Notes: generated by a model not told the origin, from the letters alone. A DNA stretch of 64,000 nt from a virus (IMGVR_UViG_3300033066_000592:1-64000); one strand, 5' to 3'; positions 17,104-42,438 are shown, counted from the stretch's first letter. Translations and numbers: made by a program.

Positions 17104-17183
17104 GTGCTTTCTCCTGTGCTCGTGAATCAGCGCCGTTCGCCACCGTGGCGTCGTGCGCCTATTGCGCCGCACAGGCTAGCACG

Positions 17184-24672: not shown

Positions 24673-26529
24673 ATGAATTCGGCGCAGCAGCAGAGCTGGC
24701 AAGAGCGCAGCAACCTAGATCCAGGTACAGCACAGCTTGTTGACGAACTGGCGATGGCCCTCGTCAACAAGCTGCATCCAGCGCAGCTGCGCAACCCTGA
24801 GTCGCCGCCTAGTGAGTCGGTGCTGGTCGATCCACAAGGGGAACCTCTGTCGAAGTCGTTCGACGAGCCAAAAAGCTACTTCATCGATCCGAATGACATG
24901 CTGGGCGGGACGGGTATGAACTACGTCTACCCGCCCACGCAAGTCACGTACGAGACACTGCGCCTGCTGGCGGAGCGTGTGCCTGTTTGCTCGTGTGTGA
25001 TTCTGACGCGTGTGAATCAGGTCGCGTCGTTCTGCCGAGCGCCGCGCAACAAGTATGACATCGGCTTCAAGGTGCGGCCGATCGGCAAGTTCGATGATCG
25101 CGAGCTGACACCGGCAGAGAAATCCAAGTCGGAGGACATTGAGACGTTCCTGCGTTGGACTGGCAACGAGTACAACGAAGGTCGCGATGACTTCCAGACG
25201 TTCGTGAAAAAGCTCGTCAGAGACCGCTTGTACTATGACCAGGCGTGCTTTGAGAAAGTCGCATCACGTGACGGCGGCCTTGCCAGTTTTCATGCGATTC
25301 CGTCAGAGTCGATTCGCATCGCGATTCCGAAAAACGCGCAGGCGACACCTCCGACGGAGCACGATGTACGCCACGACGTCAAGTACGTGCAGATCATCAA
25401 CAGTCAGCCAATTCGCGACTACACGCATCGTGAGCTGGCTTTCCTGGTGGCTAACCCGCGCACGAATCTGCACGTCAACGGTTACGGATTCCCTGAGACA
25501 GAGATGATGCTGACCACGGCGATGGCGTTGCTGTGGGCAGAGGAGTGGAACCGCAACATCTTCAAGCAGGGCTCCACGCTCAAAGGCATCCTCAACGTCA
25601 AAGGCAGCTTCGCCAAGAACAAGTTCCTCGACCTGAAGCGAGAGTTTCAGACGAAGTTCACAGGCGTTCATAACGCGCACAAAAACGGCATCGTCAACGT
25701 CGACGAGCTTCAGTGGATTGCACTCCAGCTGAGCAATACGGAGATGGGCTTTCAGAGCTGGATCGAGTACCTGATCAAGCTCACTTGCGCGTTCTACCTC
25801 ATCGACCCCGCCGAGGTGAATTTCGACCTGCGCGGTAGCTCCCAGCAGCAGCCGATCTTCATGTCTGGCAACGAAGCCCAGCAGAAGATCAGCCGTGATC
25901 GCGGCTTGTCGCCGTTGCTTCAGTACGTCGAAGACGCCATCAACAAGCACATCGTATGGCGTATCGACCCACGCTATATGTTTGGGTTCGTCGGTCTCAA
26001 CGCCAAGACGCAAGAGCAGGCGATCGAGCTGGCCAGCAAAGAGGTCAGTTCCAAGCTCACGCTCAATGAAGTACGCGCGCTGGACGATCTGCCACCTGTG
26101 AAGGGCGGCGACATCGTACTCAACGCGATCTACACAGGCCGCTTGGCTGCATTGGACCAGCAGCAGGCTGGCGGTGGCATGCCAGGAATGCCACCGGGCG
26201 CGGCACCAGGCATGCCTGGTCAACCTCAACCGCCACAGCCGGGTCAGCAGCAGCCTGGGAATCCTTACGACCAGCTACAGCCAGGCCCGCCGGCTGCCGA
26301 AGATAAGCAGGCCGGTGCAAACCTGAAAGCTGCGAGTCAAGGTAAAGATGAGTCGTCATCGAGTGGCGACTCATCTGTGCCTAAGAAGGTCCGGCGCGTG
26401 TTGATGCGCAACGATTGGGAAAACAGCTCTCTGTTCATGTCGCAGGACAAGCGCAGCGCAGCAGGCACAGACTTGGTGAAGTCTCTGTTTGGCCAGGATG
26501 CGACTGGCGATACGTACGACGAAGTCTAG
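24673..26529 (+). CDS. portal protein
   Basis: LVRDRLYYDQACFE, NPRTN..VNGYGFPE, F.QGS..KGIL, QWIAL..SN.EMGF, IDPAEVNF, TLNEVRA.DDLPP..GGD. Confidence 0.92.
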   Translation: MNSAQQQSWQERSNLDPGTAQLVDELAMALVNKLHPAQLRNPESPPSESVLVDPQGEPLSKSFDEPKSYFIDPNDMLGGTGMNYVYPPTQVTYETLRLLAERVPVCSCVILTRVNQVASFCRAPRNKYDIGFKVRPIGKFDDRELTPAEKSKSEDIETFLRWTGNEYNEGRDDFQTFVKKLVRDRLYYDQACFEKVASRDGGLASFHAIPSESIRIAIPKNAQATPPTEHDVRHDVKYVQIINSQPIRDYTHRELAFLVANPRTNLHVNGYGFPETEMMLTTAMALLWAEEWNRNIFKQGSTLKGILNVKGSFAKNKFLDLKREFQTKFTGVHNAHKNGIVNVDELQWIALQLSNTEMGFQSWIEYLIKLTCAFYLIDPAEVNFDLRGSSQQQPIFMSGNEAQQKISRDRGLSPLLQYVEDAINKHIVWRIDPRYMFGFVGLNAKTQEQAIELASKEVSSKLTLNEVRALDDLPPVKGGDIVLNAIYTGRLAALDQQQAGGGMPGMPPGAAPGMPGQPQPPQPGQQQPGNPYDQLQPGPPAAEDKQAGANLKAASQGKDESSSSGDSSVPKKVRRVLMRNDWENSSLFMSQDKRSAAGTDLVKSLFGQDATGDTYDEV

Positions 26530-26540
26530 GAGACACGACG

Positions 26541-29500
26541 ATGGTGATGGTAGCGATTAAGCCACCGAGGCGCGTACGCAGATGGCTAGAGCGACTTGAT
26601 GCGCCTGGCGCAGTGGATGCCGAGAGCTACCACGTCACGTTGTTGCACATCAAAGGCGCTGACCTGTCGAAAGCTGGCTTTGCCGCTCTGTGCGAAGCCG
26701 TCGCCACGACTTGTCGGACGCACAAGCACTTCGCAGCCAAGATCGGCGGCTTCGGTTATTTCCAGAACAGTCAGCCGAAGCCCTGTGTGTGGGCTTCTGT
26801 CGATTCTGTCGCTCTCACAGACGTGCGAAACAGCGTCCTTGCGCATCTCAAGGGCAGCGATGTCAAGGTCTCAGACGAGCACGGATTCACGCCGCACATG
26901 ACGCTCGGTTACACAGAGCATGCGCGCAAGTGGAAGCCTGATCATGTGAAGCGCATGCCCGAGTGGACTGCGAAATCTCTGTACGTCGTGAAAGACGACG
27001 TCTGGACCCGCATGCCTCTGACAGAACCCGTGGACGATCGTATGCGTCTTGTGCCGACGTTTGAGTCAGGCTACCGCGACCTTGAAAAGCTATGGACCTG
27101 GCACAAGTCGCTCGTCGTCGTGAATGAATCCCTAGAGAAAGGCCGCAAGAAGGGCGGACAAAACAAGACGCGCCGATACTTGCTGCGCATCGAGATGCCC
27201 GGTGGTTCACCGGGCAAGCCGAACTACCGCTACGTCTATCCAGATAAAGACGACGTCGTCAGCTTCGATCCAAAGACGGGCTTCAAACTCAAGCCAGGTC
27301 GCAGCATTGCCAAGATCGTCAACGAGAAGCTGTTCGGCGACTACGGCGTAGACTCGCGCACGGGCGATCCCTACGTGAAAGAGGGCCTGTTTTACGCATA
27401 CGAGCCACGTGTCAGCACGTCGTACATGAAGCGCGCGTACGGTGAGCCGATTGCCACGGAGACGCTGAACAAGGTTCGGTTCTTCAAGTACAAGAAGGTT
27501 CACGGCTACACGGACGTCGACCTGGGCCCTGGCGTGGCCGCGTCAGGCTACCGGCTGCCACAGAAGCTGACGCAGCTTCAGATGACCGCTGACGAAGCGG
27601 CGGCGGCTCCGGGAAATCTCGCCGCAGAAGGCGCCGTCATCCTCAAACCAGAGGAGTTTGAAGAGAAGCGACCGTCGCCGTCTCACGACGTGGCACCTGT
27701 CGGCGAGAAGTCGATCGTCGTCGTACCAGAACAGACTCCTCTGTCGAAGTTGAACCTGGCTGAGCCGCTTCCTGACGACGTGGACCCGCTTCAGTACGCG
27801 GTGTCAGCAATCGAAGGCACGCGGCCTGGCCCTGGCAAAGCCGTTGTACGCCCGTTCAAGCAGTGGATGATCGACAAGTTCGGCAGCGAGTCAGGCTTGG
27901 TACAAGAGCTTGGCAATCGGCCGGCTACGACGTTGGTGACGCTCGGGCGTTTCAAGCCGACGCAGAAGAAAGTCCTCGCACGGCTCGAAGAAGAGTGGCG
28001 CGGCGTGATTCGGGGCATCGCCAAGCGTGCTGTGTCGGCGTATCGCGTGAGCAACGCATATCTTGCGGCCAAGGCATCAGATCAGGCCGCTGGCGTGCCG
28101 TACGAGAGTCAGAGTTCAGCAGCGCGCGGCTATATGCGTGAAGTCTTCAAAGAGGCCACGCAGCACGGCAGTGAGCAGCTGCTGCGCCTCGCTCGCCAGT
28201 ATGAGCCCACGGTTCATCACGATGATCGTTTCGACAAGTGGCTGTACGGCGCACTAGAGACGCAGATCGCGCGACACACCAAGCAAGAAGTCGAGCAGAG
28301 CAGCGGTGGCGGTGGAACGATCGAGCCGATCGTCAGCGGCGACATCGAAGAGGCCGCACGACGTACAGCGCAGCAGGTTGACCTGCAGCCTGACGAAGCC
28401 TATGAGCTGAAAGAGGCTGGTCATGACCAGCTGTCAGGCGACGAACTGACGACGTTGTCGACTGTGACAGGCCCTGCGAAAGCGACACTGCTGCGCACGC
28501 TGCACTCGCCTGAGATGCCGCAAGCGTACAGACGAGTGCTGGCTGCGCGCCTGTGGCTCGATTCGCCTGAGTCAAGCGCCGCTGAGGAGCAGGCCATCGC
28601 CAAGCGGTCTGACAAAGGTGTGAAAGGGCCGCAGAGTTTCGAGCGCAACTACACAGGCAAGAACGGTATCGCGTCGCGCTACAAGACGTGGATAGACCCA
28701 AAGACAGGCAAGCTTGTAGACGTGTCGAAGCTGAATCAGAGCCGACAAGCCGCCCTGTTGTCGAGCTGGTACGAAGCGGCTAAAGCGCATGTATTTCGGC
28801 AGCTGAGCGTACCGATGGCCGAGGCTCGCGCCACGATGCCAGACGTGCATCCGAGCGGCCTCTATCAGAATCCGAAGCGTGTGCCGTTCACAGAGCAGCA
28901 GATCGCCGACAAGCTGCATTCAGTCGGCCATGGCACAGCTGAAGATGCCGCAGACTTGCTGGTGGACGCCGCGCTTGGTGGCGGTATGCGCGTGCTGACG
29001 CGCGAAGGCGCGATGGTCAAGCGTTGGCTGGAGCTAGAGACGAAGCTGGCGCGTGGCAATCGTCGACTGTTCTCAGAGCGCACGCAGCATCCGATTGCAC
29101 AGGAGTCGCTGTCTGGGCCCGTGCCCGCACGTCCCGCGAAAATCGTCGTCATGCCTGAGAAGCCTGTGCTGGATAAGCACGGCGAGTGGCAGTCGCTACC
29201 TGTACATCCGACGCAGCGCTCAGCGCATCCGGCGATCGACTTCTTCTCGTCGACACCGAACCAGCAGCTTGCGCAACGGCTGGGCATCAATCTGCGACAC
29301 ATCAGTGGTCCAGAGACGGCCAGTGGTGTCTACGCGCATCAGAACGTCAGCATGGGCACCGCCGCGGAGCACACGCTTGCTGCTGCCAAGCTGGCACACG
29401 CGAAGCTGCTCAAGATGCAAGCACTCAAGCCTGCGCGTCTGCACGAAAAGCTAAAGCGCGCTCAGGCCGACGCAGATGCTCTAGACAAGCTAGGGTTGAG

Positions 29501-30296
29501 CCGCACGTCAGCAGGCATGACGTGGAACGAAGCCGGTCAGATCGGCAAGTTCTACAATGCTGTGCGTGCGCTGCACGCAGCTACGAACACGATCAAGCAA
29601 AAGCAGGCGAAGGTCCGTCTCGCCAAGAAGGCGTATCGCAAAGAGGCTGGCAAGGTCAGCATCGCGGCCAAGAATCCGTTCGACCGAAAGAAGGACAAGC
29701 TCGCGCATTCGGTCATGCGACATATCCTCGCTGTGAAACCGACGAGTACGCAGGAACTTGACCAGGCTGTGATGAACTGGATCGACGAGACGCACGACGT
29801 CGAGAGCAAGTCTGCACGGCGGACGTTTTTCAATGCCGTGAAAGAGCATCTACGCAACGAGAAAGCCGTCAGCAGTGGTGGCGACTTGGCGAAGCATGAA
29901 GCCGAGCTGAAGAGTCACGCGCCGACTGCACAGGAAATAGCAGCGCACAAGGCCGCAGCTGATCACGCAGCGAAAGCTGGAGCTGCTCTTAGCGCCGTGA
30001 AAGTCGCAGGCAAACCGTTCGGTAAGGAAGTCGTGATGCGCTACATCAGCAGCAAGAATCCGGCTGAGGTTCATGACGAGGTGCGTGCTTCGCTTCAGAA
30101 TCTTGCATCAAGCGTACATACCGACAAAGAGCTTGCCGAGTTCGAGCTGAACCGTCGCAAGACGGCCGGCAACACGCTCGTCAAGTCGATGGCTGAGGCT
30201 TCGTTCGAGAGCTTCGGTGCAGCGATCGATGCGTTTGATTTCGCGCTTACGATGACCGATTCTGCACGTATGGCTGCCGAAACGGTCGTGGTGTGA
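26541..30296 (+). CDS. polyvalent protein: N-terminal 2H phosphoesterase, central sigma70-like region, C-terminal shared helical module
   Basis: AGGAG RBS before ATG 26541; YHVTL and PHMTL HxT motifs. Confidence 0.75.
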   Translation: MVMVAIKPPRRVRRWLERLDAPGAVDAESYHVTLLHIKGADLSKAGFAALCEAVATTCRTHKHFAAKIGGFGYFQNSQPKPCVWASVDSVALTDVRNSVLAHLKGSDVKVSDEHGFTPHMTLGYTEHARKWKPDHVKRMPEWTAKSLYVVKDDVWTRMPLTEPVDDRMRLVPTFESGYRDLEKLWTWHKSLVVVNESLEKGRKKGGQNKTRRYLLRIEMPGGSPGKPNYRYVYPDKDDVVSFDPKTGFKLKPGRSIAKIVNEKLFGDYGVDSRTGDPYVKEGLFYAYEPRVSTSYMKRAYGEPIATETLNKVRFFKYKKVHGYTDVDLGPGVAASGYRLPQKLTQLQMTADEAAAAPGNLAAEGAVILKPEEFEEKRPSPSHDVAPVGEKSIVVVPEQTPLSKLNLAEPLPDDVDPLQYAVSAIEGTRPGPGKAVVRPFKQWMIDKFGSESGLVQELGNRPATTLVTLGRFKPTQKKVLARLEEEWRGVIRGIAKRAVSAYRVSNAYLAAKASDQAAGVPYESQSSAARGYMREVFKEATQHGSEQLLRLARQYEPTVHHDDRFDKWLYGALETQIARHTKQEVEQSSGGGGTIEPIVSGDIEEAARRTAQQVDLQPDEAYELKEAGHDQLSGDELTTLSTVTGPAKATLLRTLHSPEMPQAYRRVLAARLWLDSPESSAAEEQAIAKRSDKGVKGPQSFERNYTGKNGIASRYKTWIDPKTGKLVDVSKLNQSRQAALLSSWYEAAKAHVFRQLSVPMAEARATMPDVHPSGLYQNPKRVPFTEQQIADKLHSVGHGTAEDAADLLVDAALGGGMRVLTREGAMVKRWLELETKLARGNRRLFSERTQHPIAQESLSGPVPARPAKIVVMPEKPVLDKHGEWQSLPVHPTQRSAHPAIDFFSSTPNQQLAQRLGINLRHISGPETASGVYAHQNVSMGTAAEHTLAAAKLAHAKLLKMQALKPARLHEKLKRAQADADALDKLGLSRTSAGMTWNEAGQIGKFYNAVRALHAATNTIKQKQAKVRLAKKAYRKEAGKVSIAAKNPFDRKKDKLAHSVMRHILAVKPTSTQELDQAVMNWIDETHDVESKSARRTFFNAVKEHLRNEKAVSSGGDLAKHEAELKSHAPTAQEIAAHKAAADHAAKAGAALSAVKVAGKPFGKEVVMRYISSKNPAEVHDEVRASLQNLASSVHTDKELAEFELNRRKTAGNTLVKSMAEASFESFGAAIDAFDFALTMTDSARMAAETVVV

Positions 30297-30297
30297 C

Positions 30298-32484
30298 GTG
30301 CATCTGCATTACGAGGACATCAGAGCTGACCTTGCGTACCTGAGCCCGTTTCCTGTGGAAGCGGCTAGCGTGCGCAAGGTCGTACAGGGTTATGAAGGCG
30401 TGTTGTACAGCGCCGGCCGTGCCTATATGTACACGCTGAACGGTCGGGGACTTCGCTTCGTAGGCGTGCCTGATGAAGCCGCAGACGACGCTGCGCGAGC
30501 GCACGATCTGTCGATGGACGCAGAGCGCGCGTTGTCGCTGGCCGAGAATCGTCGTGTGTCAGCGGCTGAGGCCAGCGAAGCCGTACAGATGAACGGCGCT
30601 ACTGTCGGCCAGGTGCTGATCGTCAAGGCGAGTCCAGGCGCGCACCACGCAGGTTACATGCGGCGTGATCCACGCACAGGTAAGTTGGAGCAGGTGTCGC
30701 CGCTTGGTTACACGCCAGAGAAGCCACCGCCGCGCGAGACGAAGCATTATGCGGCAGTGAGCGTGAATGCGGATGTCGAGCTGGAGTCTGACGACGAGCT
30801 TGGGCATCAACTGCTCGCGCATCTCATCAAGCGACAGCCCAAGAATGAAAAGCAGCTTGCCGCCGCTGTCGAGAGCTTCGTTGACGACAGTTTCGACATC
30901 GAGAACGCAGCTGCTCGTAAGAAGTGGCTGAAAACGATTCACAGCTATCTGACGGAAAACGGAATCACAGAGACGGCAGACGCCAATGACGAGGAAGCCG
31001 AAGGTGATGCCGAGCAGGATGCGTGGAGCAGTCGCAAGGCACAGGCAAAGCTTCAGATTCCTGTCACGTTCAAACCACGTGGCACCAAGCTGCTTGTGAA
31101 TGGGCAGCCCGTCTCTGTATCGGCCGATGTCGAGCAGGCGTGCTATGCGTACGCCAAGCGCTTCCTCGTCAAGGGCGGTACCGTCAAAGACCAGGCGCGC
31201 TTCGTCAAGAACTTCGAGTCGAGCTTGCGCAAGCTCGGCGTGCCCAAAGGTGACATTGGCTATAAGCACTTCGTTGTTCAAGCGAAGAAAGACCTCGCGG
31301 CGCCTGTCAGCAAGAAGGGTCCGAAGGACGAGAGCCCGCAAGCACGGCCTGACCTGTACGTGAAGCAAGACGGCGTTATGACGCGCGTGATTGCTGCAAC
31401 GCTTCCGACAGGTGGCTTCTACACGGGCAAGAAGGGCTACGGCACGTGGGTTCCTCCTGTACGTGAAGAAGACCTTGTGCTCAACGTGTCGCCAGGCGGA
31501 GCGCCAGCAGGTTGGCGTGGTAAGGTCATCAACGATCCGTCGAAAGATTTCTACCTGACATGGGAACACCCTGTCGCCAAGAAGCGCGGTTACGTCTACA
31601 TGAGCCGCAAGCAGGCGGATCTGGAGAAGTTTTTTGCCTGCACAGTGCTCAGCAAGAAGTTGCAAGACATCTCCGACGATGTGTTCAAGGACATCACGAG
31701 CAAGAGCACACCGTCAGCCACCAAGGCCGCGGCGTTGTGCGTGATGCTCATAGATCAGCATCACTTCCGTGTGGGCAACGAGACGTTCGCCAAGCAAGGC
31801 ACGTACGGTGTTGCGTCGTTTCGTGCCAAGCACGTGAAGATCGACGGCACGAAGGTTACGTTTGAGTTCGTTGCCAAGAAGCAAGAGCCGTGGAAGCGCG
31901 AAGTCGACTTCGCTGGTATGCCGTCAGCTCTCGCATTCCTGAAGACGTGCATGAAGGGCAAGAAGCCTGACGATCGGCTCTGGTCTGGCACTGACTGGTC
32001 TGCATCGTCGAAAGACGTGAACGAATATCTGGCGCCGTACTCAGCTGATGGCGTCAAGATCACGGCGAAGTCATTGCGCACGTACCATGCGAATCGGCAC
32101 ATGACGGGCTACCTGCGCAAGCTGGAAGAGGCGCAGACGGCCTACAAGCTCACCGATGTCGAGGTGCGCAAGCTGTACAAGGGCGTCAAGCTCAAAGGCA
32201 AAGACGCCGCGCTGCTCACGCGCAAAGCCAAGAAAGACGGACCGAAGCTGTCGGACTTCTTGGGCTTCGTGCCGTATGTCGGCGCCAAGGGCAAGGGCAG
32301 CGCCATGACGGGCGTGCTGCCGTCTGTGGCAGCAAAGATGGGCCACACGACGGGTGCCTGCCGGAATAACTATATCGATCCTGTCGTGGTGACACGGTTC
32401 GCTGTACTGCACGGCTGGGACGATCGAACACCAAAAGAGCGCAAGTCTCGTGAAGACCTGCCAGGGTATGAGCCCGATGCGTGA
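30298..32484 (+). CDS. DNA topoisomerase IB with long N-terminal extension
   Basis: FRVGNE..TYG, FEFVAKK, KSLRTY, KMGHT..ACRNNYIDP: the R-K-R-H-Y catalytic set. Confidence 0.88.
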   Translation: MHLHYEDIRADLAYLSPFPVEAASVRKVVQGYEGVLYSAGRAYMYTLNGRGLRFVGVPDEAADDAARAHDLSMDAERALSLAENRRVSAAEASEAVQMNGATVGQVLIVKASPGAHHAGYMRRDPRTGKLEQVSPLGYTPEKPPPRETKHYAAVSVNADVELESDDELGHQLLAHLIKRQPKNEKQLAAAVESFVDDSFDIENAAARKKWLKTIHSYLTENGITETADANDEEAEGDAEQDAWSSRKAQAKLQIPVTFKPRGTKLLVNGQPVSVSADVEQACYAYAKRFLVKGGTVKDQARFVKNFESSLRKLGVPKGDIGYKHFVVQAKKDLAAPVSKKGPKDESPQARPDLYVKQDGVMTRVIAATLPTGGFYTGKKGYGTWVPPVREEDLVLNVSPGGAPAGWRGKVINDPSKDFYLTWEHPVAKKRGYVYMSRKQADLEKFFACTVLSKKLQDISDDVFKDITSKSTPSATKAAALCVMLIDQHHFRVGNETFAKQGTYGVASFRAKHVKIDGTKVTFEFVAKKQEPWKREVDFAGMPSALAFLKTCMKGKKPDDRLWSGTDWSASSKDVNEYLAPYSADGVKITAKSLRTYHANRHMTGYLRKLEEAQTAYKLTDVEVRKLYKGVKLKGKDAALLTRKAKKDGPKLSDFLGFVPYVGAKGKGSAMTGVLPSVAAKMGHTTGACRNNYIDPVVVTRFAVLHGWDDRTPKERKSREDLPGYEPDA

Positions 32485-33811
32485 CGACTACACGAAATAT
32501 TTTCTGAGCCGCGTAGACGGCAGTGAAGACGCCTACAACGGCTACCTACAAGCGCCTGGTGACGACTTGGTGTTTGTGGCCGAGCGGCACGGCCGAGAAG
32601 ACGTCGTGACGAAATCGACGGTGCTGATGAAGGCCGAGAAGTATAAGGTGTTGGGAGTAGCATTTGGCTATGCGAAGCACATTTCCTATCAGCGTCTAGA
32701 TCCCCGCACTGGAAAGATGGTGCAGGTGAAAGGCGGTCGTGATACGCCGATAGGAAAGACGTCGCTGACACCGCACCACTTCGACATTACGGTGCAGAAG
32801 AAGCATGGTCTCAGTGACGATGAGACGGCGATGGCCGTACTTCGCTACGTCGCGCAGAAGAAAGTCCGCACAGAAGGCGAGCTGCACGAGGCTGTGCAGG
32901 AGTTCGTGGAGAAAAATTACGACTCCGAAAGCTCAGAAGCTCGGGGCAAATGGGTGAGCACGATTCTGAAAGCCCTGTTTCACCACAAGGCTGTACAGGT
33001 CACGCATCCAGGTGACGACATTGCGTACGGCAATATGCGCGTGCGTGATATGGCCATGGTGAGCCAGTGGGTACAGGGCTCCAACAACACCGTCGGTTCT
33101 GTCAGGCTCCGTGTCGGTGTTGCGAAACTGTTTAAGCAGGATATCGAGCGCGTCACGGAACGCGCTCGAAAGAATTCATCTGACAAGAAACGTTTTGAGC
33201 GCATGTTGGCTGACGCCAAGGCCGACAAAGACCTCGTCGCTTCTGTGGAGCGCGTAGCGGCGCTGTCACAGTCTGCTTACAAGGGTCAAAAGACGGTCGT
33301 GCTGCATCGCGCTATCAGCAAGGAACAAACAGCTGAGATTCGGAAACAGCTAAAGCTGAAGCCCGGTGTGACTGCACGTGGGAAGGTCATTACGATACCC
33401 GTCGATAACGTGACGTCGTTGTCAGAGAATGCTGCTGCGGCACATTCGGCGTTCGCCGGTTTTGACGGCATGACTGTACGGGTCGAGGTACCCGTGTCTG
33501 CCATCGTGATGTCGTATCGGGCAATGCCGTCCACGATGTCGCTAAGCGGCGACACTGAGTGGGAGGTAGTTGTCGCTACGCCAGGTAAGCTTCATGCTAC
33601 GATCGTAGCCGACAGATATCTTGGTGAGAATTCGTTACCGGAAGCTCCTATTAAATACCAAAAATCTTCTTTACGGGCTTTGGCTGAAAAAGAACGTGCA
33701 CGTTTTGAATCTAGGTACACAAAATTAAATCCCAAGCAGCACAGTATCTACAGCACCTATTGGAAAAAAACGCCTGCGGAATTCCTGCTCGAAGAAGATG
33801 TGTTTTCATGA
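32477..33811 (+). CDS. putative ADP-ribosyltransferase (R-S-E class) with shared N-terminal module
   Basis: VLHRA...VTSLSEN...VEVPVSAIV...EWEVVV. Confidence 0.6.
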   Translation: MRDDYTKYFLSRVDGSEDAYNGYLQAPGDDLVFVAERHGREDVVTKSTVLMKAEKYKVLGVAFGYAKHISYQRLDPRTGKMVQVKGGRDTPIGKTSLTPHHFDITVQKKHGLSDDETAMAVLRYVAQKKVRTEGELHEAVQEFVEKNYDSESSEARGKWVSTILKALFHHKAVQVTHPGDDIAYGNMRVRDMAMVSQWVQGSNNTVGSVRLRVGVAKLFKQDIERVTERARKNSSDKKRFERMLADAKADKDLVASVERVAALSQSAYKGQKTVVLHRAISKEQTAEIRKQLKLKPGVTARGKVITIPVDNVTSLSENAAAAHSAFAGFDGMTVRVEVPVSAIVMSYRAMPSTMSLSGDTEWEVVVATPGKLHATIVADRYLGENSLPEAPIKYQKSSLRALAEKERARFESRYTKLNPKQHSIYSTYWKKTPAEFLLEEDVFS

Positions 33812-34329
33812 AAACAAAGCCCATAGCGCTCACAGTAGACATCGACGCAAACGGTGGTAACGAATGGCTGCACGAGATTCGTCGCAGGCGCGCGGCGCAA
33901 CAGCGCATGCAGAAGGCGCTACCCCAACCGCAAGCCGAGAAGCCGGCCAAGCAGCTTGAGCCTGCGAACAAGCACCAGGGCACCAAGGCTGCGAAAGTCG
34001 CGGCCAAAGGCAGCGGTCGGCCTCGCTACACCTACCCGACCGAGAAGAAGTCGGCACAGGCTGTGGCAGCCAAGCAGGAAGCTGTGATGGTCGCACCTGA
34101 TGGCGTCGATCCACAAGCATTTGCCACCAAGCTGGGCCTGTCCCTGTCGACGCTCAAAGGCACCGTACAGGAGTTTGTGAGCGAGCCGAAGATGGGTGGC
34201 CGTGAGGGCTTCGCCAAGTTCATGCGCAGCACCGTAGGTAAAGCGTTCATGACGCGCAACGGCGTGGGTGACGACTACTTCGGCAAGCTGTACGATGTGT
34301 TCACGAAACCCCCACAGCAGGAGAACTGA
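33808..34329 (+). CDS. basic head-region hypothetical protein
   Basis: ATGA coupling; MQKA site followed by GRPRYTYP. Confidence 0.65.
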   Translation: MKTKPIALTVDIDANGGNEWLHEIRRRRAAQQRMQKALPQPQAEKPAKQLEPANKHQGTKAAKVAAKGSGRPRYTYPTEKKSAQAVAAKQEAVMVAPDGVDPQAFATKLGLSLSTLKGTVQEFVSEPKMGGREGFAKFMRSTVGKAFMTRNGVGDDYFGKLYDVFTKPPQQEN

Positions 34330-34330
34330 G

Positions 34331-34843
34331 ATGCCGATGCAGACACCGACCATTGCAGAACGCATGAGTGCCGCCCTTCACGACGATGACGATGCCATCG
34401 AAAAGGGCGGCGCCGACAAGCTGAAGGTGAACAAGGTGCCGTTTCCGCACAAGAAGCGCACGGGCCCCACAACGGTGCGGCCTGGCGGCAATGTGCCGAA
34501 GCACGGCAACACGCCGGCCCAGCTTAAGGGTAAGATCAAGAAAGGCGACGAGGCCGAAGGCGTCGATGAGACCGACGGCAGCGTGCTGACGCCGCCCGAA
34601 GGCGTTGTCGAGAAGGGCAAGGGCGCGTCCTGCAAGAGCTGCGGCAAGTATGGCGCGCTGTGCAAGTGTGAGGGCAGCATGCAAAAAGGCGAGGACACCG
34701 AAGACAAGCCGGCGCGTGTCGGAGCTTCGGATTTCGTCAAGAGCATGCACGGCATGACCGACGATGACATCGCCCGCGCCGCGCAGTCCGGTATCCTCGG
34801 TCTTGGCGGCACGCCGGCCTCGCTGGGCTTCCCCTCCGCGTAG
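34331..34843 (+). CDS. head-region protein with multiple hydrophobic-x-K-G/S sites
   Basis: IEKG, IKKG, VEKG, MQKG, FVKS; CKSC..CKC. Confidence 0.65.
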   Translation: MPMQTPTIAERMSAALHDDDDAIEKGGADKLKVNKVPFPHKKRTGPTTVRPGGNVPKHGNTPAQLKGKIKKGDEAEGVDETDGSVLTPPEGVVEKGKGASCKSCGKYGALCKCEGSMQKGEDTEDKPARVGASDFVKSMHGMTDDDIARAAQSGILGLGGTPASLGFPSA

Positions 34844-34899
34844 TACCCCTCGCTTCTGTTGCCTAGAGCCGTTCTGGCTCGACTATACTGCCCCACATA

Positions 34900-37800
34900 A
34901 TGCTGACAGGCAAAACGGTGTCAGGCGGCAAGCTGCGCGTGCGCGTGCAGCCGCTGCCCTACGCGCATCTCCAGCAAGTGGCTGACGGTTTGACGCACGT
35001 GTTTACGACACGTATGCGAGAGCTGGAAGCCAAACTGAACGCGCGTCTCGCTCACACGGTAGAGCGTCTACAGCCAGCCGTGCTCATCGTGTCTGACGAA
35101 CATCTGAGCAAAGCGGCTTCACCTAAGCAGAATGCATCTGGTCAAGCACGCGCGAAAGCCGGCGAGGGTCAGACGCGCACGTATCAGCGACCGCCAGGCG
35201 GTGTGAAGACGCCAGGCCAGCGCGGCGGCAAGTTCTACTACACGGCGACAGGCAAGCTTCGTTACGGCGAGAAGCCGCAGCCGCAAGAACGTGAAGCCAC
35301 GCACGAAGAGGTGCGCCAGCATTTTCAACACTTCCGGCCAACGCCATTCATGTCGAATTCTCGGGAGCACAAAGACCTGCTCCAGGCGATTCGTGATCTG
35401 AAGACCGGTGGCTTCGATGAGACAGATGACACGCTGCTCGGCTGGTGGGAGAAACACCAGAAGCAGTTCAACAAGCTATGGGGCCTGTCTGACGAGGATG
35501 TGGCCGGCGATCTGTCTGCGATCCAGCTACAAGACAACGACGGTCGAGAGCTGTCATATGAGCAGGCGGTTCATGAATTCCTGATGGATCAAGACTGGGG
35601 TGACGCCTCTGAAGCTGACGTAGAAGAGGCGCTGCGCGATGTCATGACGCGCTATCAGAATGCGCTACGTGACCCGGCCGTCATGAAGAAGGCCGAAGCC
35701 ATCGCAGCGCAAGTGGACCAGCAGGTGTATGGCTGGTTCACGAACATGGAAGCGACAGCCGATCACTATGACGGCCTGGCTGCGTCGCTGTCCGGTGATC
35801 CTGACGTCGCTGTTGCGAACATGACAGCGGCGCTTGGCGCTATGGAGCTGGTTTTCAAACCAGGCAAAGGCCAGAAAGCTGGCGATCTGACTGGTGCGAT
35901 TGCGCCGAACAGCGGCTGGCTCGACGAAGGCGGATACCTATCGACGACAGGCGCCGATCGCGTAGCGAGTCTCAACGTCGGACAGCTTCTCGCTATCTAC
36001 GCTGGCGCCAGGCTCAACGAGGCTTTCGATCCAGACACAGCGACCTACGACACGCTTCACGGTGGCAAAGGCCCGCAGTCAAAGCTGGCCGAAACTGTGC
36101 GCAAGCTCATCGCGCAGAAGCTGAAGCTGGACCCTGCGGGCGCGGTCATGACGACGGTGCTAGATGGCGTTCACGCAACCATCGAGCGTCTGGCTACGAC
36201 GTTCTCGAATGCCAACACAGGCCGTGACACGTCAGGTCTCGCCCGCAAGTTGCTCGACATGCCGAGCGACAAGCTCACCAAAGGTGGCGAGGGCGTTCAG
36301 AAGCTGATCGAGAAGGCGCAGAACTTCGAGCAGCTGAAGGCCGACGCGCTCAAGGCCCGTGAGGACGAATCCTGGTCTGTGCCCGACACGATGCTCGAAG
36401 GCAACGTCGGCGGGAAGAAGATCAATCCGATCACAGGCAAACCGTTCGACCTGTTCAAGCACCAAAAACAAGCCATCAACTGGGCCAAGACTGTCAAGCG
36501 TGGGCTTCTTGCAGACGATGCCGGTATGGGCAAAACGGCCGAAGTGATTGGCATTTGCGAGTCGCTGAAGCAAGACGGCAAGATCAAGCGCGGCATCTTG
36601 TTCCTACCACCGTCGCTTCTTGCACAGTGGCCAAAAGAGATCATGAGCTTCGCGCCAGAGATGGCAAAAGGCGGGCGCATCCTGAACCTGTCTGGCCTGT
36701 CCCTGGAAGCTCGCAAGGCCGCGCTTCAGAGCGACATGGCCAAGAACGCCGAGTACATCCTCATGAGCACGGGCTCACTTGCCTATGGCAAGTCCGAAGA
36801 CGGCGAGGAGGATGGCGGTATGGATGAGGGCTTGGTGCAAGCTCTCGCGGATCTCGACGGCGCTGTGTTCATCGACGAAGTACATCAGGGCGGCTTCAAG
36901 ACAGGTAGTCAGGGCGTCGCTGGTACGAAGGATTACAGACCGGGTAGTGTTAAGCATGAGATCACGAAACGCATCATCGGTGAGCGTGATTACGCGTTTG
37001 GCATGACAGCTACACCATGTCCAAACAACCCGATGGACCTGTATCACTTGATAAACCTCTTTCACCCAGGGTGTGTTGGGGATCAGGCTGAGTGGGAAGA
37101 GAAGTTGTCGGGCGTGAAGTGGGACGGCCATTCGTGGCGCATACCGCATCCTGAGAATGTGCAAGAGATTAACCGTCGTATTAAGCCGTTCGCGCTACAC
37201 CGTTTGATCACGGACAAAGTTGTTGAAGAAGACATGGGCAAGCAACTCCCGCAGCTCACGTCTAACGCGATAGACTTAGAGCCAGCGACGGCAAAGTGTC
37301 CCGTAACAGGTTGGAGTCAGCTTGATTACCTGCGACCTGGCGGTGTTTGCGATGCTTTGGCGCAGAAACGCTTAGAGATCATCAACGCGAAGCGTGAAAA
37401 AGCCGGAAAGCCTGTGTTGGAGGGTGTAGACGCAGAGACTACCGTGCGCATGATCCACATGGGCCTAGAGCGCCAGGCCGCTATCAGTCCAGAGCTGATA
37501 GATCCGCGCTACCGCGGTCCTGCCGCCAAGCTCGATCGCGTTGTTGCCGATGTCATCGCCCACTTCTCAGGCGGCGCTGGTCAGGAAGGCAAGCCGATCG
37601 TTCTGTTCGACAGCTTCCCTCGCAAGTCTTTTCCCGTCGTCAAGCGCAAGCTTGCGGAAGCCGGCATCGACGTGAGCGGCATCGGCGAGATCATGGGTGG
37701 CAAGTCAGCGCAAGAACGCGCTTTCATGCAGGATATGCTCAACGGTTATGAGCGTGTGAATCCTGCGACGAAAGAGAAGGAGTTCGTACCAGGTAAGCTC

Positions 37801-39282
37801 AAGGTGCTGCTCGTAGGTACGAAGGCTGGCGGCGCTGGTCTGAACCTACAAAAAGCGGCGAATCGCTCGATGTTTTTGAGCGAGCCGTGGGACCCCGCGA
37901 GCAAGCGCCAAGCACTTGGCCGCGTGTGGCGCACAGGGCAGAAGTCGCACTGTACCGCTGACAACTACCGCATGATCGGTACCTACGATATGCGTGTGGA
38001 AAATAAGCTCGGCACCAAGCAGCTCATGACGACTGCTTTGCTGGGCGACGCTGACGTGGACTTCAATCAGAGTGCTGACGAGCACATCCAGCGTCTGACG
38101 GGCCGCGAACTTGGCGGCGAGAACATGAGCACCGAGCAGATGGCGGCTCTGTTGGCAAACGCTGGTAACTTCAGTATCGACGCCGATTCGCTGGGCGATG
38201 ACTTCGATGACGTGAGCGAAGACTCGTTTGACGATTCTGAGTTCATGGACAAGAAGCTCAAGCGGTCAGAAGAAAAGAAGCTGGAGGCTGACCCAGCAAA
38301 GCGCGCCGCGCTTCAAAAGAAGGCGCCACAACTGGCCGAAGTCGTCGACATGAGTGCCGAGTCTGACAAGTGGCACGCAGAGGCGATGCGTCAGACGGCC
38401 AAACAGCGCTATGACATCGCGATGATGCAAGCGAAGGTCGCCGAGACGGCCGGTGACAAGCAGATGGCCGACAAGGCACAGAAAGCAGCGGAGCGCGTTA
38501 AGGCAGCCTTTCCAGAAGCTTTCGGCGCTGTCGAGCGTAAAAAGCAGGAAGTCGACACGGACGACCTGTTCGCCAAAAAGCAGCAAGCGAAAACCGAGTC
38601 GGTACAGCGTCAAGCGCAGACGGTAAACGAAGGCAAAGAGCCCACGCGCGGGGACATGAGCCTTGCTGCGGCCAACTATGTTGCGCGCAACAAAGATCAC
38701 TTCAGTACCAAGCAGCGCAAGGCCGCGCAAGAAGTGATCACACAGGCAGAGCGCCTGGGCATCGACAGTGATACGTGGCGACCTAACGAGGAGCGGCTTG
38801 ACCGGCTCGCCAAGCACAAGGGCCAGATGCCCAAGATGGGCGACGTGCTCAAAGACCTCAAGCAGCGGTGGGCGGAACACAACTGGCTTGAAGCAAACGG
38901 TCACACGAAAGAAGCAAAGGCCGCACGCAAAGAGATCGATCAGCAGCATGGCTGGCTGCCTGAAGAGTTCGATGACGTGGCGTCTCAGCAGCAGCAAGAG
39001 ATGGCGCACAAAGGCATTGGCGTGAAGCCGAAGAAGCCGGAAGGCTTTGTGGCACCTACGGCGTTTCCGGCCAAAAACCCCTTCAAGAAAAAAGAAGACC
39101 CTCTCGCTTACGACGCGATGGAACACCTGCTTGCGAAGCAGCCCAAGACGTATGACGATACGCAGGCAGCGCTACTCCAGCACGTCAAGAAGACGATGAA
39201 GGGCACACCCGAAGCGCTTAACAAGTTCGCCACGCAGGTGCACAAGTACCTGATCAAGAACAAGGGTTTGACCTATGGATGA
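34900..39282 (+). CDS. SNF2-family (SF2) helicase/translocase, 1460 aa
   Basis: GLLADDAGMGKT, FIDEVH, MTATP.PNNPMDLY, AGGAGLNLQKA, PWDP...QALGRVWRTGQ. Confidence 0.92.
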   Translation: MLTGKTVSGGKLRVRVQPLPYAHLQQVADGLTHVFTTRMRELEAKLNARLAHTVERLQPAVLIVSDEHLSKAASPKQNASGQARAKAGEGQTRTYQRPPGGVKTPGQRGGKFYYTATGKLRYGEKPQPQEREATHEEVRQHFQHFRPTPFMSNSREHKDLLQAIRDLKTGGFDETDDTLLGWWEKHQKQFNKLWGLSDEDVAGDLSAIQLQDNDGRELSYEQAVHEFLMDQDWGDASEADVEEALRDVMTRYQNALRDPAVMKKAEAIAAQVDQQVYGWFTNMEATADHYDGLAASLSGDPDVAVANMTAALGAMELVFKPGKGQKAGDLTGAIAPNSGWLDEGGYLSTTGADRVASLNVGQLLAIYAGARLNEAFDPDTATYDTLHGGKGPQSKLAETVRKLIAQKLKLDPAGAVMTTVLDGVHATIERLATTFSNANTGRDTSGLARKLLDMPSDKLTKGGEGVQKLIEKAQNFEQLKADALKAREDESWSVPDTMLEGNVGGKKINPITGKPFDLFKHQKQAINWAKTVKRGLLADDAGMGKTAEVIGICESLKQDGKIKRGILFLPPSLLAQWPKEIMSFAPEMAKGGRILNLSGLSLEARKAALQSDMAKNAEYILMSTGSLAYGKSEDGEEDGGMDEGLVQALADLDGAVFIDEVHQGGFKTGSQGVAGTKDYRPGSVKHEITKRIIGERDYAFGMTATPCPNNPMDLYHLINLFHPGCVGDQAEWEEKLSGVKWDGHSWRIPHPENVQEINRRIKPFALHRLITDKVVEEDMGKQLPQLTSNAIDLEPATAKCPVTGWSQLDYLRPGGVCDALAQKRLEIINAKREKAGKPVLEGVDAETTVRMIHMGLERQAAISPELIDPRYRGPAAKLDRVVADVIAHFSGGAGQEGKPIVLFDSFPRKSFPVVKRKLAEAGIDVSGIGEIMGGKSAQERAFMQDMLNGYERVNPATKEKEFVPGKLKVLLVGTKAGGAGLNLQKAANRSMFLSEPWDPASKRQALGRVWRTGQKSHCTADNYRMIGTYDMRVENKLGTKQLMTTALLGDADVDFNQSADEHIQRLTGRELGGENMSTEQMAALLANAGNFSIDADSLGDDFDDVSEDSFDDSEFMDKKLKRSEEKKLEADPAKRAALQKKAPQLAEVVDMSAESDKWHAEAMRQTAKQRYDIAMMQAKVAETAGDKQMADKAQKAAERVKAAFPEAFGAVERKKQEVDTDDLFAKKQQAKTESVQRQAQTVNEGKEPTRGDMSLAAANYVARNKDHFSTKQRKAAQEVITQAERLGIDSDTWRPNEERLDRLAKHKGQMPKMGDVLKDLKQRWAEHNWLEANGHTKEAKAARKEIDQQHGWLPEEFDDVASQQQQEMAHKGIGVKPKKPEGFVAPTAFPAKNPFKKKEDPLAYDAMEHLLAKQPKTYDDTQAALLQHVKKTMKGTPEALNKFATQVHKYLIKNKGLTYG

Positions 39283-39673
39283 TCACGCGATTTTCGAACT
39301 CGTGCGCGCTGACGGTAAGAAGCGCGCACGAGTGACGACACCGAAAGACACGCTGCGCGTGCACGACGCCGACGAGCTTCGTGCACAGCTTGATCACTAC
39401 AGCAAGGCCAATGGTGTGACGTTCCTACGTCACGTGGTCGTTGACTCGCAGCAGGCACGTCTTCAGTACGTCAAGTACCTGCGACCGGCTTTGCGCTACT
39501 ACTGCAAAAAGTTTGGCGTACAAGTGCCCGACTGGCTCAAGGCCGATACAGCTTTCTCAACGCTGTCCGCACACGAGCAGCACACGCTGTTCGGTGAAAC
39601 GGTCAAGTTTCCTGTGCGTGAATTCGCAGAGGTGAACACGTCTGGTTCGAAGCAAGGAAAGATCGCGTCATGA
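39275..39673 (+). CDS. hypothetical protein
   Basis: Overlapping start and stop with both neighbours. Confidence 0.65.
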   Translation: MDDHAIFELVRADGKKRARVTTPKDTLRVHDADELRAQLDHYSKANGVTFLRHVVVDSQQARLQYVKYLRPALRYYCKKFGVQVPDWLKADTAFSTLSAHEQHTLFGETVKFPVREFAEVNTSGSKQGKIAS

Positions 39674-40374: not shown

Positions 40375-41225
40375 GCGAGTCACCGTTTGCACGTGTGGTT
40401 CTGCACCAGAAACCTACAAAGCTGGAAACGCCAGATTCTGGCCGCACAGGCTTGGTGCGCATTGCGACGTACGAGGGCGGCACCAAAGCTGTGGTCCGTG
40501 TGCAGAGTCACGAGCTTGAAGGTAAGCGCACCAAGGGCTTCACCAAGCAAGACGGGCTGCCTGTGAAATCACAGCCCGTCAAAGACGCGGCCTACTACGC
40601 ACTGGCGAAGCTGTTGCGTTGCGACGACATCGTGCCCGAAACGTTGCTGAAGATTACGCGACGCGGCAACGACGTTTCATACCAACGATTCGAGCGAGCA
40701 CTGACACTGCGTGACCTAGAGCCGGCTTTACACAAGCTGGAAAAGGGCAGCGACGAGTGGCGTGCTGCGGCGGCACAAGCCATGAAAGTCGTCTCTGACG
40801 AAGACTGGCTCAAGGCAGCGCTGCTCGGCCTTGTTGCGGCTGACCGAGACAGGCATCTCAAGAACTTTGGCGTGCGTGTCTTGGTTGAAGGAAACCGCAT
40901 CGTCTATAGGCTCGTGCTGTGGGACAACGGCGTTTGTCTCGGACAAGCATTCAAGAAGTATCGCAGCGTCGTGCATGAGATCCTGCATGCTCGCAAACTG
41001 GTGTTCGGTGACGTCTTGGCGCGCGTAGACGACATACGTGCTGACGACGTGACAGACTTACTGGTTACGAACCGCATCCACCCGACGGAAGCACAGCAAG
41101 CCGGCAAGCGGCTTGACTTCGTGCGCCGATACCCCCACCGGATGCCTTGGAACATACTCACAGGCATGCCCGGCTATCCTGCCTATCGAAATTTCTTCAG
41201 AGGCGGGGTAGATTGGCGGGGATGA
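40371..41225 (+). CDS. PI3K/PI4K- or HipA-like kinase
   Basis: AAYYALAKLL..DIVPET; DRDRHLKN catalytic loop; LWDNG. Confidence 0.72.
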   Translation: MSESPFARVVLHQKPTKLETPDSGRTGLVRIATYEGGTKAVVRVQSHELEGKRTKGFTKQDGLPVKSQPVKDAAYYALAKLLRCDDIVPETLLKITRRGNDVSYQRFERALTLRDLEPALHKLEKGSDEWRAAAAQAMKVVSDEDWLKAALLGLVAADRDRHLKNFGVRVLVEGNRIVYRLVLWDNGVCLGQAFKKYRSVVHEILHARKLVFGDVLARVDDIRADDVTDLLVTNRIHPTEAQQAGKRLDFVRRYPHRMPWNILTGMPGYPAYRNFFRGGVDWRG

Positions 41226-42010
41226 GTACAGCACACGAGGTACAGCGTCTTCTTGAGGAGGACGAATTTTCGCTGTGGGTTCCGCCTACCGCGACGTCAG
41301 GCTTTACGCTCCTGTCGAAAGCTGGCGAAGTTCCTGCTGACGATGCCCCGCGCATCATTCACGGCTTCTGCACGACAGAGCACGAAGACCGGCAACAGGA
41401 AATCGTGATCGCCAAGGGCCTGGACTTCGCACCGTTCATCAAGCATGGCTGGTTCAACGACAATCACTCGCCACGAACGGCCGACGTGTTGGGCTGGCCT
41501 ATCGAAGCTCGTCTCTACGAAGACAAAGGCTGGTACACGAAAGGCCAGCTTCTGAAGGGCAAAAAAGCCGCTGACGACGTATGGGAACTGGCTGTCGCCC
41601 TTTTCAAGAGTGGTAGCCCTCGACGCCTGGGCTTTTCGATCGAAGGCAAAGCGACGTTGCGCAATGCAGCAAATCGCATTGTCAAAGGCGTTGTGCGTCA
41701 TGTCGCCATCACGCGCGATCCTGTGAACCCGAACTGTCAGCTCGACGTGCTGTGCAAGGCTTTCGCGCCGTCGGAAGAAATCGAGCGCGCCTACACGATC
41801 AGCAAGGCCGCGATGATCGGCCATCAACATCCCGTTATGCACGGTCACGCAGCTCTTGTGCCTGCAAACTTGGAAGCTGCACGTATCATCCGACGAAAAC
41901 AAAAACGTTTGTCGAAGGCAGACGTAGAACATCTCGTACGTCAAGAGATGCAAATGTCCGACGCCTCCGTGATGCGCGTCGTGGACTGGATCATGTCGCA
42001 ACAACAGTGA
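41222..42010 (+). CDS. prohead maturation protease
   Basis: IHGFCTTEHEDRQQEIV, FNDNH, GFSIEG, HVAIT.DPVNP. Confidence 0.85.
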   Translation: MSTAHEVQRLLEEDEFSLWVPPTATSGFTLLSKAGEVPADDAPRIIHGFCTTEHEDRQQEIVIAKGLDFAPFIKHGWFNDNHSPRTADVLGWPIEARLYEDKGWYTKGQLLKGKKAADDVWELAVALFKSGSPRRLGFSIEGKATLRNAANRIVKGVVRHVAITRDPVNPNCQLDVLCKAFAPSEEIERAYTISKAAMIGHQHPVMHGHAALVPANLEAARIIRRKQKRLSKADVEHLVRQEMQMSDASVMRVVDWIMSQQQ

Positions 42011-42017
42011 GGACCAG

Positions 42018-42389
42018 ATGAACAAGGCACCGACGCAGACCACTCGCCGTATCAACCTGACCGATCCCCAGATCAAGCTGTTTCAGCTGGCGAGCGGTCA
42101 GAGTTTTACGATCCCGGAATCGATCGACATCCCTCCGATGCCGAACAACCTGATGGCTGCGGCCACCAGTCGGCGCGCCACTGGCGGTGAGATTTTTGGC
42201 TTCACCGATGACCAGGGCGTCATCGAGCCGCATCGGGATTTCGGCCTCGTGCTGAAGCCTGGCGATCGGCTGGTGCACGGTGCCATCGGCGCGGTGGCCG
42301 CGAACACTTCGATCCTGTACGTCAACGACGTCGAAGTGCTGCGAATCACGTGCAGCGACATCAGCGTGGTGCTCGGCTTCTACAGCTAG
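42018..42389 (+). CDS. hypothetical protein
   Basis: GAGGA RBS; lies between protease and scaffold. Confidence 0.65.
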   Translation: MNKAPTQTTRRINLTDPQIKLFQLASGQSFTIPESIDIPPMPNNLMAAATSRRATGGEIFGFTDDQGVIEPHRDFGLVLKPGDRLVHGAIGAVAANTSILYVNDVEVLRITCSDISVVLGFYS

Positions 42390-42438
42390 GCGCTGTCGTT
42401 TCACATCACCGAACGCTGAAAAGCACTGGAGCTTCAAG

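Follow-up and report, generated by a model that had tools for sequence, protein, structure and literature searches.

Injecting phages need a route by which their enzymes enter the head, and the known tickets are short N-terminal peptides, as in phages T4 and P1, or fusion with MuF or another head protein. The virus record IMGVR_UViG_3300033066_000592 (IMG/VR; linear, 74,264 bases, about 63% of the genome) carries one domain of about 75 residues, hereafter the module, on four different large proteins encoded between the portal and prohead protease genes, thereby raising the question of what a single domain does on several enzymes. The first 64,000 bases of the record, which are the whole stretch of DNA that was analysed, are called the window, and coordinates are counted from its first base. 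In this study, the homology, predicted fold, distribution and predicted processing of the module were investigated computationally, and the explanations for its recurrence were weighed. The module is tentatively read, on the basis of sequences and models, as a lineage-specific winged-helix-like protein-docking domain that would tether cargo inside the phage head, and we give this reading somewhat less than an even chance.

Four carrier proteins and four homologous copies

The interval from portal to protease contains four large plus-strand genes, namely, the carriers of the module, together with five small genes. The carriers are as follows.

26541..30296, plus strand: carrier 1, a 2H phosphoesterase protein (Pfam 2_5_RNA_ligase2, E 1.9e-14; TIGR02258, E 6e-12)
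30298..32484, plus strand: carrier 2, a type IB topoisomerase, TopIB (Pfam Topoisom_I, E 1.4e-27, residues 437-615)
32450..33811, plus strand: carrier 3, a probable ADP-ribosyltransferase (ART) of 453 residues, with no direct family match
34900..39282, plus strand: carrier 4, a SNF2-family helicase (Pfam SNF2-rel_dom, E 1.2e-14, with ResIII and Helicase_C; phrog_62, E 2e-49)

Carrier 1, whose gene limits follow those of P0005, is composed of a 2H domain in the N-terminal 170 residues, an uncharacterised core of about 850 residues, the module and a C-terminal tail. The motifs TAKSLRTY and NYIDP can be read in the TopIB protein. Carrier 3 (P0003) gave no ART match in Pfam, NCBIfam or PDB sequences; it is a probable ADP-ribosyltransferase because a cassette within the related 2H protein P0006 matches DRAT (E 8.5e-7) and aligns to the carrier 3 orthologue P0008 (E 2e-36), and because an R...S...ExE pattern is readable in its own sequence. 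The SNF2 carrier is DarB-like by context. DarB carries helicase and methyltransferase domains.

The module copies lie at the following positions.

29655..29879, plus strand: copy 1, C-type (basic, with an AKNPFxxKKD lead-in), residues 1081-1155 (1085-1152 by narrower limits) of 1293 in the 2H protein, with about 140 residues after it
30751..30975, plus strand: copy 2, N-type (acidic), residues 152-226 of 728 in the TopIB protein
32780..33001, plus strand: copy 3, N-type, residues 111-184 of 453 in the ART-like protein
39058..39279, plus strand: copy 4, C-type, the last 74 residues of the SNF2 protein

These four copies are homologous, and the whole 74,264-base record contains exactly four. BLASTP within the window paired TopIB with the ART-like protein (128 residues, E 2e-13), and the 2H protein both with TopIB (71 residues, E 2e-6) and with SNF2 (75 residues, E 8e-5). 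When hidden Markov models (HMMs) were built with one copy left out in turn, the omitted copy scored 46.5, 52.2, 41.9 and 28.3 bits, whereas shuffled copies (2000 per copy) averaged about 0 and reached 13.6 bits at most. Chance similarity of the copies is rejected by this comparison.

A first-pass annotation of the sequence had described a helical module of about 55 residues shared by these proteins, and had named alignment against shuffled controls as a check. The shared homology stands, every omitted copy being far above the shuffles, and the length and fold were revised to about 75 residues in the order strand, three helices and strand, beginning one short strand earlier. All four of its peptides lie on the plus strand, and the starts that it gave at 30787, 32813 and 39070 are exact; the start of copy 1 is at 29667 and not at 29680, the range having been given about 13 nucleotides off and out of frame. 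It had further called the module C-terminal in two proteins and N-terminal in two, which is right as to nearness to either end and wrong as to strict termini, as the residue numbers of copies 1 to 3 indicate.

Predicted fold and the case for DNA binding

AlphaFold prediction on the four-copy alignment produced a confident model (pLDDT 90, pTM 0.77). As modelled for copy 1, the module consists of a strand at residues 2-3, three helices at residues 15-27, 32-46 and 52-68 (13, 15 and 17 residues long, with a connection of five residues between the second and the third) and a strand at residues 72-73, and the two end strands pair. A second model, made from the ART-protein copy and its upstream region, has the identical order of elements with pLDDT of about 78 over the module.

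Foldseek searches of PDB and BFVD with these models returned nothing at E <= 1. Exhaustive structural alignment of both models returned, as nearest solved folds, winged-helix domains almost exclusively (Z 4.2-6.1). The best neighbour was the N-terminal domain of MukF (Z 6.1 and 5.9 for the two models; root-mean-square deviation 2.2 over 61 residues), and further neighbours were MecI (Z 5.5), JetA, the Hel308 winged helix, linker histones, the winged helices of MCM, Stn1 and Rpa2, Fur, Lrp and cullin WHB. Peptide-binding recognition elements were also present, namely, TbiB1 (Z 4.7 and 4.5), McbB (Z 4.8 and 4.2) and TbtB. A structure search of the ESM Atlas added a PqqD cluster (TM 0.57) and MksE, and feature searches of the same resource gave no usable match. 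The winged-helix likeness is modest and at Z 5-6 holds at the level of the fold only, as a 'common arrangement' of the modelled elements. In the models the module resembles winged-helix domains in its three-helix core with short closing beta strands; in the known domains the wing is a hairpin after helix 3, whereas the strands of the module come from its two ends, and its helices are long. PqqD-like recognition elements of ribosomally synthesised and post-translationally modified peptides (RiPPs) have a three-stranded sheet followed by three helices, whereas the models show a two-stranded ribbon from the ends. RiPP recognition elements bind peptide as an extra strand, and the winged-helix fold serves both DNA binding and protein binding.

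Pfam was searched with whole proteins at E <= 0.1 and with the modules at E <= 10, and at the latter threshold no helix-turn-helix (HTH) or winged-helix (WH) sequence family was matched. The module had no match in Pfam, PHROGs or NCBIfam, and a PDB sequence search with a 14-sequence module alignment gave nothing significant; in the terms of these databases it is undescribed, as had been claimed.

The main rival to docking, which the first-pass annotation had not raised, is a nucleic-acid-binding winged-helix domain. It would tether the enzymes to packaged phage DNA, entering phage DNA or host DNA, so that TopIB, SNF2, ART and the large core protein would continue to work on DNA in cis after injection. 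Both models lend themselves to this explanation, with MecI, Fur, Lrp, linker histones, Hel308 and MCM among their nearest folds at Z 4.2-5.5, and every copy has three to six Lys or Arg residues in the third helix. However, the likeness reaches only the common-arrangement level and is accompanied by no HTH or WH family match, and the connection between helices 2 and 3 varies by indels of 1-10 residues among the copies, whereas DNA-reading HTH domains keep a fixed tight turn there. The TopIB and ART copies are also net acidic (isoelectric point 4.5-6.2), and the domain is limited to head-block proteins of one small phage clade. We regard DNA tethering as unlikely, and docking by a module that would bind protein rather than DNA is retained as the preferred reading.

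Distribution among related phages

The exhaustive profile search used the four-copy profile against 1.84 billion (1.84e9) representative proteins, a search of the kind that the first-pass annotation had called for, and found eight proteins. Three are this virus's own; one is the close TopIB orthologue P0007, evidently the representative of the cluster to which the TopIB of this virus belongs; and four are from related uncultured phages. A local profile placed the module on the TopIB, 2H-core and SNF2 orthologues of the related contigs L005, L007, L008 and L009, and local HMM matches included the L007 TopIB, the 2H-core homologues of L007 and L008 and the SNF2 protein P0016. Every SNF2 orthologue found has the module, and P0010 has two tandem copies at the SNF2 end. 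In P0013 an upstream hairpin and the module are joined to an unrelated tail of 200 residues, and in P0006 (Logan SRR14092373 contig) a weak module match (independent E-value, iE, 0.006) lies within the ART cassette inserted in the 2H protein. No other protein of the 74-kb record or of the related contigs examined contains the module. It is known from a handful of uncultured phage contigs and is confined to a small clade of uncultured myoviruses, where it is found only on proteins encoded between the portal and the prohead protease. The earlier idea of a portable unit is borne out, as the module sits near either end of at least five kinds of carrier, once in tandem and once within an inserted cassette.

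Searches for further relatives were mostly negative. Protein searches with the module alignments and with the SNF2 N-terminal region recovered orthologues only, and a search of metagenome contigs with the hairpin and module of the ART protein found no relatives. The portal and TopIB as queries had no close relative among cultured phages or in IMG/VR, and the portal search of viral contigs found no relatives. TopIB had a single distant match among GenBank phages, in the catalytic domain only, and no cultured relative with the module was found.

Two types of copy can be distinguished. N-type copies, on TopIB, ART and P0013, are acidic (net charge -10 to -2) and have the hairpin before the module; C-type copies, on the 2H-core protein and SNF2, are basic (net charge 0 to +9) and have KNPFxxKKD before it. 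The tree split between them is weak (support 74/69). These opposite charge classes suggest that the modules might pair, acidic N-type (TopIB, ART and P0013) with basic C-type (2H-core and SNF2), and that accessory enzymes would ride into the head as a cargo complex. C-type carriers occur in every related contig and N-type carriers are absent from the part of L008 compared, the L007 SNF2 protein has two C-type copies, and the N-terminal winged helix of MukF, the best structural neighbour, is a dimerisation domain. However, in the P0006 phage the N-type and C-type copies cannot be matched in number, the lead-in segment and not the helices accounts for much of the difference in charge, and the weak tree support adds to the doubt. 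We consider such pairing very doubtful.

The divergence of the module bears on yet another explanation, in which it has no common partner and is a stable folding unit from cassette shuffling, that is, a structural spacer or a solubility domain. The module diverges between orthologues as fast as or faster than its carrier (34% identity against 48% overall for SNF2), and its conservation falls mostly on buried hydrophobic residues and on an Asp that caps a helix, both of which favour a spacer. Conversely, a copy is retained on at least five carrier types though the capsid and portal proteins are less than 50% identical between the phages, and the fold is predicted confidently even at 20-30% identity; its duplication in tandem and its confinement to the head block speak for a role that is under selection and specific to this context. 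A spacer is in our judgement the least probable explanation, and a docking domain continues to be preferred.

Upstream hairpin and predicted maturation sites

Upstream of the module, the TopIB and ART-like proteins share the motif HxxYxRxDPRTGKxxxV, located as follows.

30637..30735, plus strand: beta-hairpin motif upstream of copy 2 (HHxGYxRRDPRTGKxxxV, then SPLGYTPEKP)
32666..32740, plus strand: beta-hairpin motif upstream of copy 3 (GYxKHISYQRLDPRTGKMVQVKGGR)

In the copy 3 model the DPRTGK motif forms a separate, poorly placed hairpin of low confidence. The P0006 2H protein, 1598 residues long, contains a hairpin-module-ART cassette at residues 195-560, at the place equivalent to 27111-27143 of the window. 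The hairpin of this cassette is identical at 26 of 26 residues to that of P0008 and likewise to that of carrier 3 (26/26), unlike the module and ART parts, which are about 29% identical between P0006 and P0008. This difference marks hairpin-module-enzyme, on sequence grounds, as an old cassette type. A look-alike of the hairpin occurs in the 2H protein itself at 28683-28727 (YKTWIDPKTGKLVDV), with similar ones in the 2H-core proteins of L007 and L008; they head the sub-threshold list and are not significant (iE 0.7-6; 0.71 for this phage).

Occurrences of the motif [LIVMF]-x-K-[ASG] were counted and compared with 2000 shuffles of each protein.

Scaffold: observed 14, expected 2.0 +/- 1.3, reached in 0 of 2000 shuffles
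Protease: observed 8, expected 1.0, reached in 0 of 2000 shuffles
Open reading frame (ORF) 34268-34843 (191 residues): observed 5, expected 0.96, p 0.0035

No enrichment was seen in the cargo enzymes or in the portal, sheath and terminase proteins. A hydrophobic residue, any residue and Lys, followed by Ala, Ser or Gly, is probably the cut rule of the prohead protease, with the cut after Lys, because this pattern is that expected of a protease shredding the scaffold. The sites thus predicted in the carriers are listed below, with a slash at the cut.

27111..27143, plus strand: LVVVNESLEK/G, in carrier 1, where the 2H domain gives way to the core
30610..30630, plus strand: QVLIVK/A, upstream of the TopIB hairpin and module, kept in P0007 and the L007 TopIB
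32615..32635, plus strand: STVLMK/A, upstream of the ART-like hairpin and module, kept in P0009 (TVIEK/A)
35077..35115, plus strand: AVLIVSDEHLSK/A, near the SNF2 N-terminus, kept in P0010 and P0011

Near the start of every cargo protein, one conserved predicted site follows a hydrophobic strand. The predicted sites coincide with the joints of the module, because in P0006 a VVVNxxLxK/[AG] motif flanks the inserted cassette on both sides, and because the L008 homologue of the 2H protein starts where the first predicted site (27111-27143) sits. The P0006 2H protein looks like a polyprotein to be cut into 2H, ART and core. No conserved predicted site follows the module, and N-type copies have theirs upstream. 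If the predicted cuts occur, the module would stay on the mature TopIB, ART-like, SNF2 and large core proteins. In TopIB and the ART-like protein it would lie 40-50 residues behind the N-terminus that the cut creates, and in SNF2 it would form the C-terminal end; three of the four mature enzymes would thus have it near a new terminus, and it would not be a removable leader of the T4 style.

The family of the small ORF 33808-34329 (homologues at L007:4465-5073 and L008:8738-9451) has an invariant xK/ALP site and an invariant G-R/K-x-R-Y-x-Y-P-x-E-x-K motif. Look-alikes of the latter (YRYVYPDKDD, GYTPEKP and RYGEKP) follow closely on the cuts predicted in the 2H protein, TopIB and SNF2, a pattern noticed post hoc. 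The C-terminal part of this ORF had the appearance of a fifth module copy by eye, and was rejected at an hhalign probability of 0.5%.

Proposed docking inside the head

The carrier proteins would be packaged, as suggested by gene position, by an enzyme set typical of packaged polyvalent effectors and by the predicted protease sites. The cargo block occupies the position where MuF-type and polyvalent effector genes sit, and 2H, ART and SNF2 domains belong to the repertoire of head-packaged polyvalent proteins (Iyer et al. 2017, PMC5512222). Phage P1 packages the cargo protein DarB, with DarA-Hdf as anchor to the capsid inner wall (PMC9024508, PMC12810830). A docking module would give several different enzymes one handle onto a common head component, which could be the scaffold, the capsid inner surface, the portal or a core internal protein; through this handle the enzymes would be incorporated during prohead assembly, retained, and passed on to the host together with the DNA. 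A role in capsid loading, ejection or complex assembly, as inferred in the first-pass annotation, is putative. Consistent with docking are the restriction to head-block proteins of one small clade, the presence of a copy per cassette at either end, the tandem copy, the mixed charge (-10 to +9), the variable loop between helices 2 and 3, the structural neighbours that bind protein or peptide (MukF, JetA, cullin WHB, TbiB1, McbB and PqqD) and the P1 precedents for a cargo anchor.

Several points weigh against docking, and some of them favour DNA tethering. The T4 capsid-targeting sequence (CTS) and the P1 DarB N30 signal are short N-terminal peptides and not folded domains. Each cargo protein is predicted to lose a diverse N-terminal segment, and loading could be signalled by that segment, in which case the module would be free for another job. 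That one receptor should serve both an acidic N-type and a basic C-type is odd. Once cut free, the 2H domain, which belongs to an enzyme of RNA or nucleotides, would lack a module, whereas TopIB and SNF2, which act on DNA, keep one on their predicted mature forms. The fused ART cassette of P0006 likewise keeps its own module on a carrier that already has one, where a pure loading tag needs none. A winged-helix fold with a Lys/Arg-rich third helix fits DNA binding, and P1 DarA-Hdf contact DNA as well as the capsid.

A more specific possibility is that the module is a folded adaptor serving as the cargo ticket, which would bind by strand addition, in the manner of RiPP recognition elements, a short peptide or hairpin motif carried by other cargo or by a core head protein. 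The target motifs would be the DPRTGK hairpins or the RYxYPxEKK motif, and enzymes bearing the adaptor at either end would be linked into a network, loaded, retained through protease maturation and delivered together. We hold this version to be improbable; if it is true, the adaptor could serve as a portable tag, independent of orientation, with which foreign proteins are brought into capsids.

The head-gene block and its neighbours

The source phage is a myovirus, to judge from its head and tail genes, including a tail sheath. Structural genes and small ORFs of the window are given below.

3648-5435: large terminase
24673..26529, plus strand: portal protein, left border of the cargo block (Pfam Phage_portal, E 1.4e-19; phrog_12, E 3e-48)
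33808-34329, 34268-34843, 39275-39673, 39670-40374 and 40335-41225: small conserved ORFs of the block
41147..42010, plus strand: prohead protease, right border of the cargo block (phrog_1028, E 8e-45)
42280..43404, plus strand: scaffolding protein with 14 hydrophobic-x-K-[ASG] motifs (phrog_15087, phrog_9427)
43469..44944, plus strand: major capsid protein with a predicted site IRK/A at residue 40 (phrog_752, E 2e-84)
51915-54632, plus strand: tail sheath

The major capsid protein is 32-34% identical to capsid proteins of SPO1-like phages. A distance of 19 kb, which holds many unannotated ORFs, separates the terminase gene from the portal gene, an unusual layout for head genes. A ParB-like protein is encoded at 21500-22606, some 2 kb upstream of the portal gene (phrog_2159, E 1.5e-12; Pfam ParB_N below threshold), and packaged proteins of the P1 DdrB type include ParB domains (PMC5512222). 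A 340-residue ORF on the minus strand (16150-17172) is 34% identical over 203 residues (E 1e-15) to the tail sheath protein and may be a second, short sheath-like gene distant from the tail block.

Among the small ORFs of the block, that at 39275-39673 (132 residues) overlaps the SNF2 stop codon by 8 nucleotides. It encodes the best-conserved protein of the whole block, whose identity to L007 and L008 is 54-61%, where SNF2 and the capsid protein reach 45-48%. It has no family match, and its product is a candidate hub or partner. The 234-residue ORF 39670-40374 has no family match and contains a Cys cluster (CCEFC ... HGWCNC), which we take to recall the metal-binding end of MuF/gp7 proteins. 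The 296-residue ORF 40335-41225 has a weak match to HipA_C, which is kinase-like (E 0.01).

Comparison with known systems

The T4 CTS, borne by IPI-III and Alt, resembles the module in being one element shared by otherwise unrelated proteins; these enter the prohead and are injected, as is proposed for the carriers here, and the CTS is linked to processing by the prohead protease; Alt is moreover an ADP-ribosyltransferase (PMC5512222, PMC9024508). The CTS differs in being an N-terminal peptide of about 10 residues that is removed by the protease, whereas the module is a folded unit of about 75 residues near either end. The T4 cut falls directly after the tag, whereas the predicted sites here lie before the module, which is accordingly predicted to be retained. 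The module as a targeting peptide of the T4 or P1 type was rejected, since size, position and predicted retention all fail.

The Dar system of P1 is similar in placing large anti-restriction cargo in a myovirus head together with capsid- and DNA-binding proteins (PMC9024508, PMC12810830). The SNF2 carrier matches phrog_62. The P1 DarB signal is an N-terminal peptide of 30 residues on one protein, whereas the module is on four, and no sequence similarity of the module to the Dar proteins was found (Pfam).

MuF/SPP1 gp7 and the LPD domains (Iyer, Burroughs, Anand, de Souza, Aravind 2017) offer a further parallel, namely, a non-catalytic companion of portal-adjacent effectors for which transport in the head is predicted. 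In the manner of an LPD domain, the module accompanies 2H, TopIB, ART-like and SNF2 proteins between portal and protease. No match to MuF (Pfam PF04233) was found by this sequence test in whole proteins or modules at the thresholds given above, and no LPD family was among the Pfam matches, although not all 40 LPDs may be in Pfam. Polyvalent proteins combine many effectors in one chain with one MuF/portal domain, whereas the effectors of this phage are separate proteins, each with its own copy of the module.

If the module is a docking handle, it shows a third way of organising virion cargo and is a candidate tag for loading chosen proteins into capsids. The putative injected tool-kit is itself unusual, comprising a topoisomerase IB, a SNF2 helicase, an ADP-ribosyltransferase and a 2H phosphoesterase, whose roles at the start of infection are testable. 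Set beside the T4, P1 and MuF systems, the module is best described as a new domain family in a known strategy, that of virion-carried effector enzymes, which is carried out in a new way with one folded handle on separate proteins.

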